Position numbers and translations under genes: made by a program. The notes beneath the pieces are model-generated. The model saw nothing but the letters and a program-made list of their open reading frames with translations, was not told where the DNA came from and made no database searches. Shown here piece by piece: positions 4,525 to 11,630 of a stretch of 64,000 nucleotides of DNA. Each line of letters starts with the position of its first letter. Position 1 is the stretch's first letter. The DNA comes from Candidatus Moraniibacteriota bacterium (lineage in GTDB: Bacteria > Patescibacteriota > Minisyncoccia > Moranbacterales > UBA2206), in the NCBI GenBank assembly GCA_038203255.1, contig JBBREE010000001.1, positions 31,882 to 95,881 on the forward strand. Reading direction: 5' to 3'.

Positions 4525-6963
4525 TTATAACTCCCACTTATCCCTCTTCTCTTGATCTCCAATCTTATCAGTATAACCAATGTTTTTTTCATCATTACCA
4601 ATATAAATTTCCCGTGGCTTAGCCCCATCAGCCGGCCCGACAATCCCCTGCTCCTCCAAAATATCCAGAAGTCTGGCCGCGCGCGCATATCCGATGCGCA
4701 AACGTCTTTGCAAAAAAGAGGCCGAGGCTTTTCTAGATTTCATAATCTCCAGTTTGGCCGCTGCCACCAGGGCGTCGTCCGATCCTTCCGTGGCACTATC
4801 TTTAAATTCCAAAATTTCTTTTTTTGATTTTTCCGTAACTTCTGCTGTTTCCTCTTTTTCTTTTATCCTTTGTCCGCAGATAAATTTCACCACGCGCTTC
4901 ACTTCCGATTCTCCCACAAAAACACCTTGGACTCTTCTAGGTTTTGGAGAGCTAGCTGAAAGATACAGCATATCTCCCTTACCCAAAAGTTTCTCCGCTC
5001 CGCCCATATCCAAAATTGTACGTGAATCAATCTGACTACCCACCTGAAAAGCAATTCGGGTAGTGATGTTGGCCTTAATAAGACCGGTAATCACTTCTAC
5101 GCTTGGACGCTGAGTAGAAACAATTAAGTGAATACCCACAGCTCGCGCCATCTGTGCCAGCCTCACCACAGCTCCCTCTACTTCCTTACCATGTGTTCCC
5201 ATGAGGTCAGCTAACTCATCAATCACAATAACAATGTATGGCAAATTTTTCAATTCCTCCTCTGTTGTTTCATTAGTTTCCGGGTCGGTTCTTTTTATCG
5301 TCTCGCCCGCTTTCATTTTTTCCCGATATGACCCAATGTCTCGCGAACCAGTGTCTTGCAATAAACGATAGCGTCTCTCCATTTCGCTGACCGCCCATTT
5401 TAAAGCGTTAATCACTTTGGAGTTTTCCACCACCACCTCCGTCAAGAGATGTGGGATACCATTATATAGAGAAAGTTCCACACGTTTAGGATCAACCATA
5501 ATAAATTTCAGATCTTCCGGCGAATTCTGATAAAGCAAAGTGGTGATGATAGAGTTTATCCCCACTGATTTTCCAGTCCCGGTCGCTCCGGCAATCATAA
5601 GATGAGGCATCTTGCTGAGATCGGCAAAAATATTTTCTCCGCCCACATCCTCTCCTAGCGCCACCATCAGGTTAGAACTTCTTTTTCTAAATTGCGAATC
5701 CTCCACCATATCTCGCAGTCTCACTACCATAGAATCCTTATTAGGGATTTCAATCCCAATGAGAGATTGTCCCGGGATAGGTGCCTCGATTCTGATTGGA
5801 TGAGCCGCCAAGGCTAAAGCCAAATCATTTTGCAAGGAAAGTATCTTGGAAATCTTCACCCCGACCGCCGGACGAAAACTATATTGCGTCACAGCCGGAC
5901 CGGTTTTGGCTGTCCCTCTCTCCACTTGAATCCCAAAATCTTTTAAAGTTTTTTCAATAATGGCAAAATTCTTTTCGATGTCTCCGCCCTTGGCCACGCC
6001 AAAACTTTTTTCCAAAAGATCTGCCGGAGGCAAAACCCATTTTGAACCTTTTAACATTTTGGCATATCCAGTTTCCTCGTCTTTTTTGTCATGCCTCGTG
6101 TGATCATTAATGTCTAAAGATTTCCTTTCCATCACTATTCTATTCGCATCCTCCTCGGCATTATGCTCAAATTTATCCGACACTTCCGGCGAAACAAATT
6201 GATCGCGCCCTTCGACAAATTTGATGTGAGAAATGTTTTCCTCTACTTGCGCGTCTTCGGCCGATATACACTCCGCGACTGAAATTCCTTCTGTACCGCT
6301 AGTGACATCAGCCTGAATTTCAGTCTCGTCTTTCTCTTCTGGCATATCACCCCCTTCATTGGACTCTAGTAAATCTTCAGCCTCTTGCGTTTCATTTTTT
6401 CCCTTTTTAAGTTTCATAAAAAAATGCGCGATGGAAAAATCAAAAATCAAAATTATTCCTAAAAACATCATTGCTAAAATAATAACAAAACTCCCAGCAC
6501 TACCCAGATATTTCACCAACGGATAATCGATAGCATAACCCAAATATCCGCCACCTTGCCCGGAAGAAGCCGCTTTCAACATTTTAGACGGATCGAAAAA
6601 CCAATGAGTCAACCCAACAAAGCTAAAAAGAGTAATGAAAAGACCAGCGGATTTAGTTACATAAAAAAAAGTTTCTTTTCTAAAAAGAAGAATTATTCCG
6701 CCCCCAATCAGAAAAAACGGGAAGATGAATTTCACCAGCCCCACTGAGGTAGCAATCAGACTATTTAAAAGTGCGCCCAGAGTCCCCGCTTTACCAAAAA
6801 AACCCAGAACTAAAATCAAAGCCAGTGCAAAAAGAAGAACAGCTACGATACTGCGCTTGACGTCTCCGGCCAAACTTCTTTTCGGCCGGCTCTCCATTTC
6901 TTCTTCCTCAATTTCTATTGCCTCCTGCGGTTTTCTTTTTTTTGTATATTTTTTTCTAGCCAT
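4525..6963 (-). CDS. ftsK: DNA translocase FtsK/SpoIIIE
   Basis: N-terminal TM helices, an acidic linker, a motor domain with Walker A GATGTGKSVGINS and Walker B IVIVIDELADL, and a C-terminal gamma winged helix (SASFLQRRLRIGYARAARLLDILEE). The ORF-track start at 6969 is TTG; the first ATG is at 6963. Confidence 0.9.
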   Translation of the reverse strand: MARKKYTKKRKPQEAIEIEEEEMESRPKRSLAGDVKRSIVAVLLFALALILVLGFFGKAGTLGALLNSLIATSVGLVKFIFPFFLIGGGIILLFRKETFFYVTKSAGLFITLFSFVGLTHWFFDPSKMLKAASSGQGGGYLGYAIDYPLVKYLGSAGSFVIILAMMFLGIILIFDFSIAHFFMKLKKGKNETQEAEDLLESNEGGDMPEEKDETEIQADVTSGTEGISVAECISAEDAQVEENISHIKFVEGRDQFVSPEVSDKFEHNAEEDANRIVMERKSLDINDHTRHDKKDEETGYAKMLKGSKWVLPPADLLEKSFGVAKGGDIEKNFAIIEKTLKDFGIQVERGTAKTGPAVTQYSFRPAVGVKISKILSLQNDLALALAAHPIRIEAPIPGQSLIGIEIPNKDSMVVRLRDMVEDSQFRKRSSNLMVALGEDVGGENIFADLSKMPHLMIAGATGTGKSVGINSIITTLLYQNSPEDLKFIMVDPKRVELSLYNGIPHLLTEVVVENSKVINALKWAVSEMERRYRLLQDTGSRDIGSYREKMKAGETIKRTDPETNETTEEELKNLPYIVIVIDELADLMGTHGKEVEGAVVRLAQMARAVGIHLIVSTQRPSVEVITGLIKANITTRIAFQVGSQIDSRTILDMGGAEKLLGKGDMLYLSASSPKPRRVQGVFVGESEVKRVVKFICGQRIKEKEETAEVTEKSKKEILEFKDSATEGSDDALVAAAKLEIMKSRKASASFLQRRLRIGYARAARLLDILEEQGIVGPADGAKPREIYIGNDEKNIGYTDKIGDQEKRDKWEL

Positions 6964-7158
6964 ATGCAACTATATTATCATAAATAGACCAATCTTCCAA
7001 AAGATGCCTCTTCTTATGCCATCCTTTGAAAGCTGATACTTTTTAAATGCTGTTTTTTCTTTATTTATCAGGGCTTATCCACCCAGTCGGCGGATTTAAA
7101 AAGAGATCCCCTAGTGATCCCTTTTTATTGCCTATATTAATTTGTGTAGCTTATCGGA

Positions 7159-7380
7159 TTATAAAAGTCCGATATTACCAAAAAGTGTAAGAGTCATAAT
7201 TGGCATAAGAGCGATAAGGACTGCAAGTCCAAACTCTTCCGCCGCTTGATGCTCCGCCTCCCTTTTTTGACACTCAGGGCATTGGCACACGTCCTGTTTT
7301 TTTTCCAGTTCGTTTTCCATTTTGTTTTTGTTTTTATCAATTTTTTTCTTCTGTCTCACGACACAGGAAAAAAATGACAT
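7159..7380 (-). CDS. small membrane-anchored protein with CQCPEC motif (hypothetical)
   Basis: 73 aa. Lys-rich N-terminus, a CxCxxC motif, and a C-terminal hydrophobic helix (LAVLIALMPIMTLTLFGNIGLL). Confidence 0.35.
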   Translation of the reverse strand: MSFFSCVVRQKKKIDKNKNKMENELEKKQDVCQCPECQKREAEHQAAEEFGLAVLIALMPIMTLTLFGNIGLL

Positions 7381-7481
7381 TTTTTAATTAATTATTAACC
7401 TATTTAGCCCCCTAAAACACAAAAAACGGGACTCATCACCCGTTCTTTATAATATAAGTATAGCGCATTTCGAGAGAAAAG

Positions 7482-8870
7482 TCAAGGGGTGTTTTCTTCT
7501 CGGTTATCTATCTTTATCCCAGGAGGAACAAGGCCTGCCCTCTCCCATCTTTTAAATTGATCCCTAGAAACATATTTGATATTTTTTGACCTCGTCCTAA
7601 CTCGCAATAAAAAGTTATCCACAATATGCTTTTTTATTTCTCCTTTTTCCAGCCCGCTCGCCTCACTTGCTTCCTGACATATTAAATCCAAATATTTTTC
7701 ATTAAAAGAGCCAAACAGGCGGGTGTAGAGCGACAACTTTTGAATTCTTTTATAGATCTTGTTTTGCGCAAGACCAGTTTCATTCTTATTATTAGTCAAA
7801 ACAACTTGGACTTCAAAATTTCTCGTGATAGTCATTTTCCCTTCTTCTCCATTCTTTGGAACTTTAATCTCTCCAGAAAATTTAGCCACTTTAAAATTTT
7901 CATTGGATGATTCGTTTTTTTCAAACGGCACTGAATTAATTCCCTGTTCTCTAAGTTTACCTCGCAGTGATTCATCTTCTTCATTACCAAAAAGATTAAC
8001 ATTCTCAAAGACAATTTTACCAGTCTCAAAATTATCCCTTAACGTTTCAGCCATGAATAAAAATAATTTGCTTGCTTCTTTTCCATTAGCAACTTCAAAC
8101 TTAAATCCTATTCCATCCCGTATTCTCTCTTCCATTGAAAAATCGGGCTTTTTAGCCAGCTTAGCTGTTACGCTTTCTTGAGTTTTTCCACGAAAACTAA
8201 ATTTAGCATCAGTCCATGAATTTTCGCCTGTCATTATACCAACGCGATTCCAATCTTCATCTTCTTCCTTGACAGTATGAAACCTCACGATGCCATCCTT
8301 GTCTTCTTTAAAAAGCTGCTCTGATAAATATTTACTTTCATTGAATAAATCCCCGAATTCCTCTGCGTCATATTCACGCTCGGCTATCATTAGACTAAAA
8401 AGAGCGCAGTAGCTCGGGCTCAATCCCAGATTGTCTCCTTTCTTCAAGAGAGTGGCTTTGTCTAGATATTTTTCCAAATCATGTAGGTTGTTAAATCCAT
8501 CCAAGTTTTCAATTTCACGCGGGAAAGCAGCTTTAGGATCAGCGCCAGAAACCAAGAATTTTTTGTAAAAATCTTTAGCCTCTCGCCAATATCTAGAAAT
8601 ATCAGGCAATTTATTTTCTAAGTCCTTTTTATCAATCTGCATGTTTTTGGAAATAACTTCCATTTTTTCATCACTGGTCAAGCCCACCGGGATAGAAAAC
8701 AAATCAATCGGCGTTATATTTTCTCCTTCTACTGAAAGGCCCCTGTCGAAAAGCACCTCCTTAGCAACTTCCGGTTTTTGGACCTTGGTGTAAAATTCCT
8801 TTTTTAGTCCAGAAGACATATCCTTAAATCCAAATTCTCCCATAAATTTAAAATAATTTAACTTATACAT
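7482..8870 (-). CDS. hypothetical 462-aa protein; C-terminal half may carry a divergent RelA/SpoT-like nucleotidyltransferase fold (tentative)
   Basis: RGKTQESVTAKLAKK...ERIRDGIGFKFEV resembles the R.K..S...K / D.xG.R strands of synthetase-type nucleotidyltransferases. ITRNFEVQVVLTN...AQNKIYK resembles ExQIRT...YK. No GYxSxH motif was seen, so the assignment is weak. Confidence 0.4.
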   Translation of the reverse strand: MYKLNYFKFMGEFGFKDMSSGLKKEFYTKVQKPEVAKEVLFDRGLSVEGENITPIDLFSIPVGLTSDEKMEVISKNMQIDKKDLENKLPDISRYWREAKDFYKKFLVSGADPKAAFPREIENLDGFNNLHDLEKYLDKATLLKKGDNLGLSPSYCALFSLMIAEREYDAEEFGDLFNESKYLSEQLFKEDKDGIVRFHTVKEEDEDWNRVGIMTGENSWTDAKFSFRGKTQESVTAKLAKKPDFSMEERIRDGIGFKFEVANGKEASKLFLFMAETLRDNFETGKIVFENVNLFGNEEDESLRGKLREQGINSVPFEKNESSNENFKVAKFSGEIKVPKNGEEGKMTITRNFEVQVVLTNNKNETGLAQNKIYKRIQKLSLYTRLFGSFNEKYLDLICQEASEASGLEKGEIKKHIVDNFLLRVRTRSKNIKYVSRDQFKRWERAGLVPPGIKIDNREENTP

Positions 8871-8999
8871 TTATTATAGCACATAGAAAGACTGACTCTT
8901 GCCTTTTTTTATAGATTTGCTATAATCAATTTGTTTTGTAGATTCTAAATAGTCCTTGACCGGGCTATTTAAAAAACAACAAAATTAACAACTGAATAT

Positions 9000-9071
9000 T
9001 CCGCGATAGCTCAATGGTAGAGCAATTGACTGTTAATCAATTGGTTCCAGGTTCGAGTCCTGGTCGCGGAG
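9000..9071 (+). tRNA. tRNA-Asn (GTT)
   Basis: Cloverleaf: acceptor TCCGCGA/TCGCGGA, D-stem GCTC/GAGC, anticodon stem ATTGA/TCAAT with loop CTGTTAA (anticodon GTT), T-arm CCAGG-TTCGAGT-CCTGG, discriminator G. CCA is not encoded. Confidence 0.85.
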
Positions 9072-9081
9072 CTAGTGCAAT

Positions 9082-9108: not shown

Positions 9109-9213
9109 TGACAATCCTTGACTAAAAATAAATAGTGCGTTAATCTATATTGTTGCATTTATAAATTGAATAAAGCAATTTTAAAGTACCTTTTCAACTA
9201 TTGGAGGCATGCC

Positions 9214-10257
9214 ATGGATTTTACTAATGAACTTGAAAAAGCCAGGAAGATGGGTTGCGGAGACATCCGCAAGATATACCTTAATTTTATAGAAGTGTTA
9301 AGAGATTATATCAAAATCAGAAGTGTGTCGCTTCCCTTTCCATCAAGCAACCTAGTTCTTATTGGTGGAGGCTCTGGAATATCAACGGTCGGGAGATCTC
9401 TTTATGAAGTAGGCATCTCAAATTTTACATCTATAGCAAGCGTCATGGATGTTGGTGGTGGGAGTGGGGTCATTCAAGATAGATTTTGCATTCCTCACAT
9501 GAATGATGTAATGCAACACCTCATAAATATGAATCCCAGAAAAAATAAGTTTTCTGAATTTATGTCGCTACGAACATCTGACGAATGGAAGCAGGATGGA
9601 TATATCATGATAGCGGCGGCAGTTAACCTATTTGGCGTAGAAAGAGGAATTGACCTTATCGGTTGTCTATTAGAAAATGACCACAGAGCGCTTCCTGTTA
9701 CAAGCCAGCCGTGTGAGCCGATTTTTACTTACCGTGGCAGAGAGTATAAAACGTATGAATTCGCCTTTCTTCCCGATAAAATTGGCGTGGCGGATCATGT
9801 CAAACTTAATGTTTCAGCGAGCCTTCTGCCATCTGTGAGTAAATCTATACAAAACGCGAATGTAGCTGTAATTGGTCCGGGAGATATTCATTTTTCTATT
9901 CTTCCTCCAATGCTCGTGCCAGGAATGTATGAGGCCTTATGTCATGTAAGAAAGATAATTCTTATTGCTAATTTGACGGCGCGTAGAATTGACATCCCTG
10001 GCTTTACGCTCAAGGACTATATTGCCTTTTGGAAGAAAAAGTTACCACAAAAACCGAAATGCAATATTTTGGTTAATTCATTTCAAAACATCAATCAAGA
10101 AGATCCTCCCCTGAAAGATGACATTCACGGCGACTACTACATGGATTGCCACATTCATCGAGCTAACATCGCTGGACACAGCTTAAGCAGAAATAAACAA
10201 CCCCTTCATGATAAACATGCACTGGGGAAATCGCTTAAGTATATTCTAAATATATAG
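9214..10257 (+). CDS. CofD/YvcK (UPF0052) family protein, divergent
   Basis: LIGGGSGISTVGRSL...IASVMDVGGGSGVIQDRF aligns with the YvcK/CofD motifs (GGGTGLS..R.L / DDGGSSG). A later VAVIGPGDIHFSILPPMLVPGM matches the (V/I)IGPGSLYTS(I/V)LPNLLVPG motif. The ORF-track start at 9166 is TTG; an ATG at 9214 follows a GGAGG ribosome-binding site. Confidence 0.65.
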   Translation: MDFTNELEKARKMGCGDIRKIYLNFIEVLRDYIKIRSVSLPFPSSNLVLIGGGSGISTVGRSLYEVGISNFTSIASVMDVGGGSGVIQDRFCIPHMNDVMQHLINMNPRKNKFSEFMSLRTSDEWKQDGYIMIAAAVNLFGVERGIDLIGCLLENDHRALPVTSQPCEPIFTYRGREYKTYEFAFLPDKIGVADHVKLNVSASLLPSVSKSIQNANVAVIGPGDIHFSILPPMLVPGMYEALCHVRKIILIANLTARRIDIPGFTLKDYIAFWKKKLPQKPKCNILVNSFQNINQEDPPLKDDIHGDYYMDCHIHRANIAGHSLSRNKQPLHDKHALGKSLKYILNI

Positions 10258-10374: not shown

Positions 10375-11415
10375 TTAACGCTCTCTAGGTATCCAATAAA
10401 AAGTATACGAGGTATCCTCTATTGGATATTTGGTGAAATGCTTAAACTCCAAAGCGTTTATCATGATCGGCAGATACTCTAGCGGCTGTTCCTCTATTCG
10501 ATATTCCGGAACGATTGCTATAGAATACTTCCCAGTCCCTTTGGGAGAAGTAAGAATTGAAGCGCCATGCTGAGGAAGTGTATTGTTCCACGGCTTTGGA
10601 CAAAAACGATCTTTTTCCGTGAATGCAGCATCGATGTATAGGGATGTCCCAAAGATGTTATCAAAAAACCCCAACTCTTTTCGCATACGCCCAATCTTAT
10701 TTGCTTTCGCAACTACCCGACACGCTTCATCCCAAATTTCTGATGAGATTTTATTTCTAATCCAACTCCAGTTTTTAGCTTGTCGCTTACTATAAAGCAA
10801 ATCGAAAACTTCGCGAGGTATTGAATCATATGGCAACGATGTAGCTATTGCCAGTATTTCATCCATAGAGGATGCAGAAATATCAGAGCTATCAACAATA
10901 ACATCATAATCAGGAATCGCAATGATTCTTATGAAGTCAAAATGTTGCTCGGCCAAATTTTTCATTATCTCATGTTTTCGGACAATATCTCTATATGCCC
11001 AGCCAAGAGCATGAAAATGAGGCACCTCATCCCCAATAATGAGATCTATTCCTGGTTCATAATGATGTTTGATTTTCCTGTTGAGAATATCAAACCACCA
11101 GATTCCCCATAGATCACCTTTTCGTGGATAATTCAGCCTCTCGCGTAATTTCATAGTTGAAAGAGCCCCTCCGGAACATCCCCACGTCAGTCCAATTGGG
11201 ATTCTTGTCTCACTACTAATGGCCGTTTCGATGGAATTACGAATCTTTTGCTCTTCGAGCTCAGATATCGCTGTACGTGAATGCCTTTTGAGAATTCTTA
11301 TAATGGAGCTAGTTATATCCTTATCCCTCTTGGGGTTGTACCCGTCCATTTTTGCATCAATTGCCTGATTCATATTGTCAATTTGATCACTCAATTTTGT
11401 TACTAAATGCTCCAT
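10375..11415 (-). CDS. hypothetical 346-aa protein (no recognisable family), convergent with the CofD-like gene
   Basis: Long ORF with a GGAG ribosome-binding site before the ATG at 11415 (the ORF-track start at 11427 is GTG). Motifs GLTWGCSGGALS and PHFHALGW; no match recognised. Confidence 0.5.
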   Translation of the reverse strand: MEHLVTKLSDQIDNMNQAIDAKMDGYNPKRDKDITSSIIRILKRHSRTAISELEEQKIRNSIETAISSETRIPIGLTWGCSGGALSTMKLRERLNYPRKGDLWGIWWFDILNRKIKHHYEPGIDLIIGDEVPHFHALGWAYRDIVRKHEIMKNLAEQHFDFIRIIAIPDYDVIVDSSDISASSMDEILAIATSLPYDSIPREVFDLLYSKRQAKNWSWIRNKISSEIWDEACRVVAKANKIGRMRKELGFFDNIFGTSLYIDAAFTEKDRFCPKPWNNTLPQHGASILTSPKGTGKYSIAIVPEYRIEEQPLEYLPIMINALEFKHFTKYPIEDTSYTFYWIPRER

Positions 11416-11630
11416 ATTTATCTCCACGGTTTAGGATTTAGATGCATTTATATATTTATTAAAGAACAAGACATCGTACAATTAATATCACTTTATGTCA
11501 ATTTTTTTAATTTCTGGGAAGCTCTTATGTATAGAATTCCCAGAGATGTTTTATTTCAGCATTCTTGAAGCTATAAACATTAAGTGTTATAGTTATAATA
11601 TTATTTATTATTTTTTTATCATTCACCCAT

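Follow-up and report, generated by a model that had tools for sequence, protein, structure and literature searches.

A putative divergent RelA/SpoT-type synthetase family restricted to Patescibacteria, and a separate ftsK-linked micro-protein, in a Candidatus Moraniibacteriota genome

Organization of the locus

The window analyzed here, a 64,000-nucleotide stretch of the genome of a Candidatus Moraniibacteriota bacterium (contig JBBREE010000001.1, positions 31,882 to 95,881), carries two open reading frames (ORFs) of 462 and 73 amino acids between ftsK and a tRNA-Asn gene (Table 1). Both had been reported in the original prediction for this locus, and both were confirmed here by ORF and tRNA calls. 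With a probability of roughly 0.6, our analysis points to the 462-aa protein as a member of a divergent family of RelA/SpoT homologue (RSH) synthetase-type proteins, restricted to the candidate phyla radiation (CPR, or Patescibacteria). These proteins would act as ATP-dependent pyrophosphokinases encoded by a stand-alone gene, while the 73-aa ORF would encode a separate mini-protein that belongs with ftsK.

Homologue alignments indicate that both ORFs begin downstream of the positions called by the ORF finder. Residue M10 of the large protein is the column occupied by the first residue in all of its homologues (12/12), and because the alignment begins there, the true start is probably the ATG at 8843, which would give a protein of 453 residues. 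Likewise, conservation of the mini-protein begins only at M21, so that its translation likely starts at the ATG at 7320, resulting in a product of 53 residues.

Table 1. Features of the locus, with positions counted in the window
Feature	Positions	Strand	Remarks
462-aa protein ORF	7482..8870	minus	ORF listing; stop codon included
Extended -10-like element, TGcTATAAT	8881..8873	minus	before the 462-aa gene; read from the sequence
N-terminal all-alpha domain	8286..8843	minus	residues about 10-195
RSH SYNTH-like (Pol-beta-superfamily) catalytic core, predicted	7707..8285	minus	residues about 196-388
R227-G-K229-x3-S233-x3-K237	8160..8192	minus	equivalent to RelQ R46-x-K48-x3-S52-x3-K56, the RSH ATP-binding basic helix
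D252-G-I-G255-F-K257	8100..8117	minus	equivalent to RSH D-x-x-G-x-R, with the Mg2+-coordinating Asp; family consensus DGIGxR
Degenerate G-loop, N319..S322...F326...K330	7881..7916	minus	replaces GYxSxH; HMMER alignment to RelP
E353-x-Q355 ... Y373-K374	7749..7814	minus	equivalent to RSH E-x-Q-x-R-T ... Y-K
C-terminal basic domain	7485..7706	minus	residues 389-462; isoelectric point about 9.2; H-H-beta-beta-H topology
Promoter-like TTGACT-17-TATACT	7485..7457	minus	promoter scan; -35 box overlaps the TGA stop codon of the large gene
Hairpin with T-run	7451..7414	minus	folding free energy -15.4 kcal/mol; z -4.0
73-aa ORF (mini-protein)	7159..7380	minus	ORF listing
Mini-protein gene, 53 aa from M21 (likely start)	7159..7320	minus	six homologues; ftsK synteny
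ftsK	4525..6969	minus	flanks both ORFs on one side
tRNA-Asn(GTT)	9000..9072	plus	divergent from the 462-aa gene; other flank

Extent of the family

On its own, the 462-aa protein had no match in Pfam (E <= 1), in PADLOC, in PHROGs or, by phmmer, among the PDB sequences, and a profile of its 13-sequence family had no match among the PDB sequences either. A word-indexed search retrieved 12 homologues, and an exhaustive profile search retrieved 209 family representatives (clustered at 50%), of which 145 had E <= 1e-10. Nearly all of these representatives are 440-500 aa long and match over their full length. The named members that were sampled are all annotated as "hypothetical protein", and all come from Patescibacteria/CPR (Paceibacteria, Minisyncoccia, Moranbacteria and Parcubacteria). 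Judged from these searches, the large protein would thus represent an unannotated and unmodelled family of about 200 clusters that is restricted to this group. The analyses below make use of a diverse alignment of 110 sequences, with members down to about 18% identity, and of individual Pfam and NCBIfam scans of 104 members of the wider family.

Two clear homologues (60% and 42% identity) were found on contigs L005 (CAZWWQ010000115.1) and L008 (CAZTIC010000028.1), labelled as Bdellovibrionales and Gammaproteobacteria metagenome-assembled genomes (MAGs), respectively. These labels look like binning errors, as the distribution is otherwise exclusively patescibacterial and the contigs are short. 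In a Moranbacteria MAG (L013, 3110..4428), the homologue is split into two ORFs of 292 and 143 aa, which points to a frameshifted pseudogene or to a faulty assembly, and such a split may explain the short representatives of 143-166 aa (P0164, P0165 and P0177) recovered in the deep search. Within the 64-kb window, neither a second copy nor a canonical RelQ-like gene was found.

Catalytic core of the large protein

We then focused on residues 230-400 or so, where a RelA/SpoT-type segment had been proposed from the pattern R.K..S...K / DxIGxK / ExQVxxT...YK. The pattern proved real and conserved, although its R...K spacing had been given wrongly by one residue. The window protein reads R227-G-K229-T-Q-E-S233-V-T-A-K237 in the first motif and E353-V-Q355-V-V-L-T359 ... 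Y373-K374 in the last, and the three motif sets (RxK..., DGIG... and ExQ...YK) are invariant among the 13 close homologues. In the alignment of 110 relatives, R227 is found in 108 sequences, K229, D252 and E353 in 109 each, and a basic residue (K/R) occupies position 237 in all 110. S233 is kept in 61%, position 257 is basic in 74% (81/110; R in 66, K in 15), Q355 is present in 90 sequences, and Y or F stands at position 373 in 101. Altogether, the positions kept in at least 90% of the sequences are D56, C155, R227, K229, D252, E353 and R384. The resulting family consensus, RxKxxxSxxxK ... DGIGxR ... FEIQ ... HxIY, corresponds to the RSH synthetase motif set. Moreover, the motif spacing is identical to that of Bacillus subtilis RelQ, whose sequence was verified against PDB 5ded; for instance, the last motif of RelQ reads E139-x-Q141 ... 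Y159-K160, and 20 residues separate the Glu from the Tyr in both the window protein (E353-Y373) and RelQ (E139-Y159).

The literal G-loop motif GYxSxH is absent from the window protein, as had been noted before; a degenerate equivalent appears to be present. In this segment, which reads S322-N-E-N-F326-K-V-A-K330, F326 is aligned by HMMER with the Tyr of the RelP motif GYRSLH, and K330 with its His. Position 326 is aromatic in 103 of the 110 relatives (F in 59, Y in 44). Relative to canonical RSH proteins, an insertion of about 34 residues lies between the second motif and the G-loop. In small alarmone synthetase (SAS) enzymes, Mg2+ is bound by the Asp that corresponds to D252 (D90 of FaRel2), and the acceptor of the pyrophosphate is stacked by the Tyr that corresponds to F326 (Y128 of FaRel2); neither residue is dispensable there (bioRxiv 10.1101/2021.04.30.441581).

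A structure was predicted with AlphaFold2 from the 13-sequence alignment, with a mean predicted local distance difference test (pLDDT) score of 80.9 and a predicted template modelling (pTM) score of 0.81. The fold search called for in the original prediction was run on this model with Foldseek, and its top seven matches were all RelP/RelQ (E 3e-3 to 0.16). In the predicted structure, the core adopts the SYNTH-type alpha/beta fold of the Pol-beta nucleotidyltransferase superfamily. As judged from the model, the fold scores are modest, and RSH synthetases are not cleanly separated from other Pol-beta-type nucleotidyltransferases by fold alone. Therefore, the decisive evidence is that of sequence and motifs.

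Pfam RelA_SpoT (PF04607) was matched individually by 28 of the 104 family members (E <= 0.1; best 1.1e-6), while no other Pfam family was matched by more than two of them. Two members exceed the gathering threshold of this model (27 bits) over the same region: P0211, with 29.2 bits, and P0269, with 27.1 bits. These are joined to the profile of the window protein's family at E 6.9e-28 and 4.2e-13, respectively. Among the close homologues, three of 13 match RelA_SpoT at E 0.016-0.04, colinearly with the profile. In addition, an hmmsearch of all PDB sequences with the deep profile returned six matches at E <= 10, five of which are RSH synthetases (RelP, E 0.038; Mycobacterium tuberculosis Rel; and three FaRel2-type chains), aligned motif to motif; the R227 helix is also aligned to RelP and Rel by HMMER. 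Finally, hhalign of the 110-sequence profile with a RelQ profile (E 0.026) aligned the RSH motif residues one to one, pairing R227, K229, S233, K237, D252, G255 and K257 with R46, K48, S52, K56, D72, G75 and R77 of RelQ.

Motif conservation, RelQ spacing, hhalign, the PDB search, the Pfam matches and the two bridging sequences, taken together, argue that the core is a highly divergent RSH synthetase-type domain, with homology supported transitively through intermediates. The segment originally suspected of being RelA/SpoT-like is therefore supported by the fold search, the profile searches and the conservation of predicted catalytic residues.

In the NCBIfam scan, the window protein gave a single signal, to TIGR04552 and TIGR04562 (19.3 and 19.4 bits, residues 227-387), far below the curated cut-offs of these models (125 and 140 bits). 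The same models were matched by 12 of the 13 close homologues (best 2.3e-10) and by 35-36 of the 104 members of the wider family (best about 1e-12). The matches always fall in the catalytic core, residues 227-387 against profile positions of about 165-352. The CPR family would thus be placed as a distant sister of TIGR04552/TIGR04562 and not as a member. One of the TIGR04552 proteins is MXAN_4858, whose gene lies beside the glt G1 gliding-motility cluster. Our literature search returned no function for TIGR04552 proteins, and these proteins may themselves be unrecognized RelA/SpoT-like enzymes.

Several observations weigh against assigning the family to the RSH synthetases. The window protein itself lacks a Pfam match, as mentioned above, and each direct sequence link to RSH is marginal (E 0.016-0.04). 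A shallow 13-sequence profile compared with a narrow RelQ profile by hhalign (both with about 2 effective sequences, full-length and core-only, in local and global mode) gave no meaningful alignment. Within the motifs, GYxSxH is missing in its literal form and its Gly, Ser and His are not conserved in the family; the Arg of ExQxRT (EIQIRT) is replaced by Val357, a Val being found at this position in 79 of the 110 relatives; and the window protein has N370 where 90 of the 110 relatives have His.

The first alternative to be weighed is that an RSH scaffold has been kept for another chemistry, such as nucleotidyl transfer or nucleotide sensing, or that the protein is an inactive structural or regulatory pseudo-enzyme, comparable to the pseudo-hydrolase domain of RelA. 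We consider this unlikely, since the basic residues that would bind ATP and the two carboxylates of the catalytic site are nearly fully kept among sequences that are only 18-25% identical. Moreover, the RxKxxxSxxxK helix is specific to the RSH type and is not of the G[GS]/DxD type; the G[GS]...DxD signature was conserved neither in the close nor in the diverse family alignment.

Flanking domains

In the RSH-type reading, the core is embedded between two further domains (Table 1). The N-terminal all-alpha domain contains nearly invariant T53, D56 and C155, and no relative of it could be detected. It was considered as a degenerate HD hydrolase domain and rejected as such, as an HD fold with a His...His-Asp...Asp metal site was not found. 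The C-terminal domain is possibly winged-helix-like. Longer relatives of the large protein contain no additional Pfam domains.

Genomic context of the large gene

The surroundings of the large gene were compared at 28 loci with a homologue, comprising the window plus genome and metagenome contigs. Clustering of the neighbouring ORFs revealed no family-wide partner gene, and synteny was observed at the level of clades only: the large gene lies between genes for a histidine kinase and a 184-aa protein in five loci, and next to uvrB in four, while other clade-level pairs associate it with a gene for an RRM protein or with dnaJ. The neighbours are housekeeping genes (e.g., uvrB, smc, dnaJ, murG-like and ftsK), and none of the 28 loci is bordered by genes for defence systems, integrases or mobile elements.

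The large gene is kept between uvrB and uvrA in three Moranbacteria genomes. Across these loci, the identity of its product ranges from 94% down to 69-70%, versus 93-94% for UvrB. As the position is maintained while identity falls to this extent, the large gene would be a stand-alone chromosomal gene of the lineage, vertically maintained within clades and fairly fast-evolving. The idea that the protein could simply be a conserved core gene of the lineage, raised as a possible refutation of the original prediction, holds only in part: the gene is confined to the lineage and inherited vertically inside clades, yet its occurrence is patchy and not universal.

An insertion at the tRNA gene had also been proposed. 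However, no integrase ORF lies between 6969 and 9166, no att-like repeat was found (AT-rich chance repeats only), and no direct repeat of the tRNA 3' end is present. The 5' side of tRNA-Asn faces the 462-aa gene, which is not the layout of a downstream attachment site at a tRNA 3' end, and the adjacency of the two genes recurs in one close relative only, L005. The large gene has a G+C fraction of 0.364, versus a mean of 0.407 +/- 0.023 for the genes of the window, i.e., about 1.9 standard deviations lower, a weak anomaly. A tRNA-targeted island was rejected on these grounds. Phage origin is not favoured either, as a scan of viral contigs limited to two peptide patterns found no relatives and the PHROGs scan had no match.

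This context also bears on a second alternative, namely that the protein is a fused single-gene toxin-antitoxin or abortive-infection enzyme of the CapRel(SJ46) type. A toxic tRNA/RNA 3'-pyrophosphokinase core would then be kept inactive by one of the protein's terminal domains (N or C) until a phage trigger frees it. We regard this as quite unlikely. No PADLOC match was obtained, the flanks of the 28 loci are free of defence, integrase and mobile genes, and within a clade the gene keeps its place although the protein has diverged by about 30%. Moreover, the pattern-limited scan of viral contigs found no relatives, and the flanking domains show no similarity to the pseudo-ZFD antitoxin domain of CapRel or to Panacea-type domains. 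More generally, neither a conserved adjacent antitoxin gene nor a recognizable fused antitoxin domain, either of which would mark a toxSAS, was found at the 28 loci or in the domain scans. The toxin/antitoxin or defence flavour originally attributed to the locus is thus not borne out: there is no conserved neighbour and no PADLOC match, the neighbours are housekeeping genes, and the synteny looks vertical. With no immunity or antitoxin partner and in a housekeeping context, an RSH synthetase-type enzyme is, in our view, more likely to have a regulatory role of the alarmone type than to act as a toxin.

As a side observation, a 350-aa ORF (10375..11427, minus strand) beside a CofD/YvcK-like gene (9166..10257) is another orphan of this region; Pfam and NCBIfam scans of it at E <= 1 gave noise only.

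The mini-protein and the ftsK leader

The mini-protein has six homologues of 53-70 aa, with 64-72% identity, and no family model exists for it. Residues M21, C32, C34, P35, E36, C37, R40, E43 and H44 are invariant in the alignment. The 73-aa ORF contains a CQCPEC motif and a C-terminal hydrophobic segment (residues 49-73, Kyte-Doolittle mean about 2.0-2.2), with the conserved tail FGLAVL.ALMP..TLTLFG. As three Cys and one His precede the C-terminal membrane anchor, these features suggest a tail-anchored, metal-binding micro-protein with a possible CCCH site, a candidate for a small divisome- or FtsK-associated factor.

The gene order of the window, mini-gene, ftsK, rodZ-like gene and recA (followed in some cases by ndk), is also found in relatives L017 and L018, whose FtsK and RecA share about 74% and 89% identity, respectively, with the window proteins. 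In these relatives, no homologue of the 462-aa protein lies upstream of the mini-gene. When the DNA of the window was compared with that of L017, L018 and L019, conservation started exactly at CTTGACT (the -35-like box, 7485) and ran through TATACT, the hairpin with its T-run and an A-rich leader to the ATG at 7320, while the sequences upstream of the -35 box are unrelated. Because conservation begins exactly at this box, the mini-gene appears to belong to a conserved module of promoter and leader, mini-gene and ftsK, which the large gene merely abuts, and region 7414..7485 would be the leader of the mini-gene/ftsK unit rather than part of the large gene's system.

The -10-like TATACT lies at 7462..7457, and the hairpin with its T-run starts within about 10 nt of it. 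As a sigma70-like promoter reads straight into a terminator-like hairpin, this stretch may be an attenuator, a leader with a regulatory role or a tiny small RNA by which expression of the mini-gene and ftsK is controlled; the leader had no Rfam match. Promoter and hairpin are nearly base-for-base alike in four genomes, those of the window, L017 (about 60-200), L018 (about 4880-5000) and L019, with the stems kept and the loops variable. Directly upstream of the mini-gene promoter, L018 (2456..4841) and one ENA contig have small ORFs along with a gene for a large serine recombinase (Resolvase/Recombinase/Zn_ribbon_recom), and L018 also has a DEAD/ResIII helicase there. In this lineage, the junction therefore seems to be variable or prone to insertions. 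As for ftsK itself, the ORF finder placed its start at TTG 6969 (M-H-M-A-R-K...), and the ATG at 6963, two codons downstream, is the more likely start.

The original proposal, that the 462- and 73-aa proteins form an inserted two-gene toxin/antitoxin or defence cassette beside a tRNA, is highly improbable: although their genes lie side by side on one strand, next to tRNA-Asn, in the window and the large gene has the low G+C content given above, they do not travel together, the mini-protein being found beside none of the other homologue loci (0/27) and its homologues lying upstream of ftsK without an adjacent 462-aa gene; moreover, the conserved promoter and terminator-like hairpin of the mini-gene unit separate the genes, neither att repeats nor an integrase were found, and the large gene stands on the 5' side of the tRNA.

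Proposed function

RSH enzymes are central to growth control and stress signalling in bacteria and have recently been recognized also as toxins and anti-phage effectors; the superfamily is very diverse. By analogy with its characterized members, the large protein would bind ATP as the pyrophosphate donor through R227, K229, K237 and R/K257, with D252, together with Mg2+, and E353/Q355 serving catalysis. The beta,gamma-pyrophosphate of ATP could then be transferred to the 3'-OH of a purine nucleotide or of the terminal adenosine of an RNA, with the acceptor presumably stacked on F/Y326. With a nucleotide as acceptor, the product might be a messenger of the alarmone type, for example (p)ppGpp or (pp)pApp. 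Replacement of GYxSxH by [ST]xxx[FY]xxxK and loss of the Arg of ExQxRT suggest that the acceptor, or its binding mode, differs from that of RelQ/RelP. Acceptor choice or regulation may be set by the altered loop at the acceptor site together with the two flanking domains, of which the C-terminal one is basic.

A more far-reaching reading is that, in these ultra-small symbiotic bacteria, the family is a Patescibacteria-specific stand-in for the stringent response, namely a regulated RSH-type pyrophosphokinase whose acceptor pocket is remodelled and whose new N-terminal domain carries Cys and Asp. It would exert housekeeping growth control, and not act as a toxin, through a non-canonical nucleotide messenger or through 3'-pyrophosphorylation of a specific RNA of the cell. 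We put this forward as a speculative and rather doubtful extension. If true, it would provide the first function, by homology, for the TIGR04552/TIGR04562 proteins of Myxococcales and Bdellovibrio.

The RSH-type assignment of about 200 clusters would extend the known sequence space of the superfamily, link it to TIGR04552/TIGR04562, and offer a concrete enzymatic hypothesis, namely ATP plus a nucleotide or RNA acceptor. In addition, a plausible toxin-antitoxin annotation is corrected, and a conserved 53-aa Cys/His tail-anchored micro-protein tied to ftsK is identified.

Comparison with known systems

No Pfam or NCBIfam model captures the CPR family, and our search of the literature returned nothing on alarmone signalling or RSH proteins in CPR/Patescibacteria. 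What appears to be new is an RSH-like family, limited to CPR and not represented by any model, that has an architecture of its own and in which two of the five canonical motifs are degenerate. TIGR04552/TIGR04562 are the only curated models with consistent matches to it. These models comprise about 350 positions and do not cover the N-terminal domain of the CPR family, and their taxa are Myxococcales and Bdellovibrio (e.g., MXAN_4858), in contrast to the Patescibacteria of the present family.

The best structural matches of the large protein are RelQ/RelP (PF04607; PDB 5dec, 6fgk and 6ewz). With these, it shares the order and spacing of RxKxxxSxxxK, DxxGx[RK] and ExQ...(17)...YK. The Asp for Mg binding and the Glu for catalysis are likewise kept, and an aromatic residue aligns with the one that stacks the acceptor, even though the window protein is only about 10-12% identical to RelQ/RelP. 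However, RelQ/RelP proteins are about 210 aa long, whereas members of the CPR family, with 450-500 aa, have an extra N-terminal domain of 190 residues and a C-terminal one of 70 residues. The long RSH proteins (Rel/RelA/SpoT) have an N-terminal HD (hydrolase) domain, which was not found in the large protein.

The toxSAS toxins (FaRel2, PhRel2 and CapRel), which pyrophosphorylate the CCA end of tRNAs, share the RSH synthetase core with the CPR family, and FaRel2 and CapRel are among its sequence and structure matches. The Asp and the aromatic residue equivalent to D90 and Y128 of FaRel2 are conserved in the CPR family. Nevertheless, unlike the toxSAS, the CPR family has no conserved antitoxin gene, defence-island context or PADLOC match, and its flanking domains are different.

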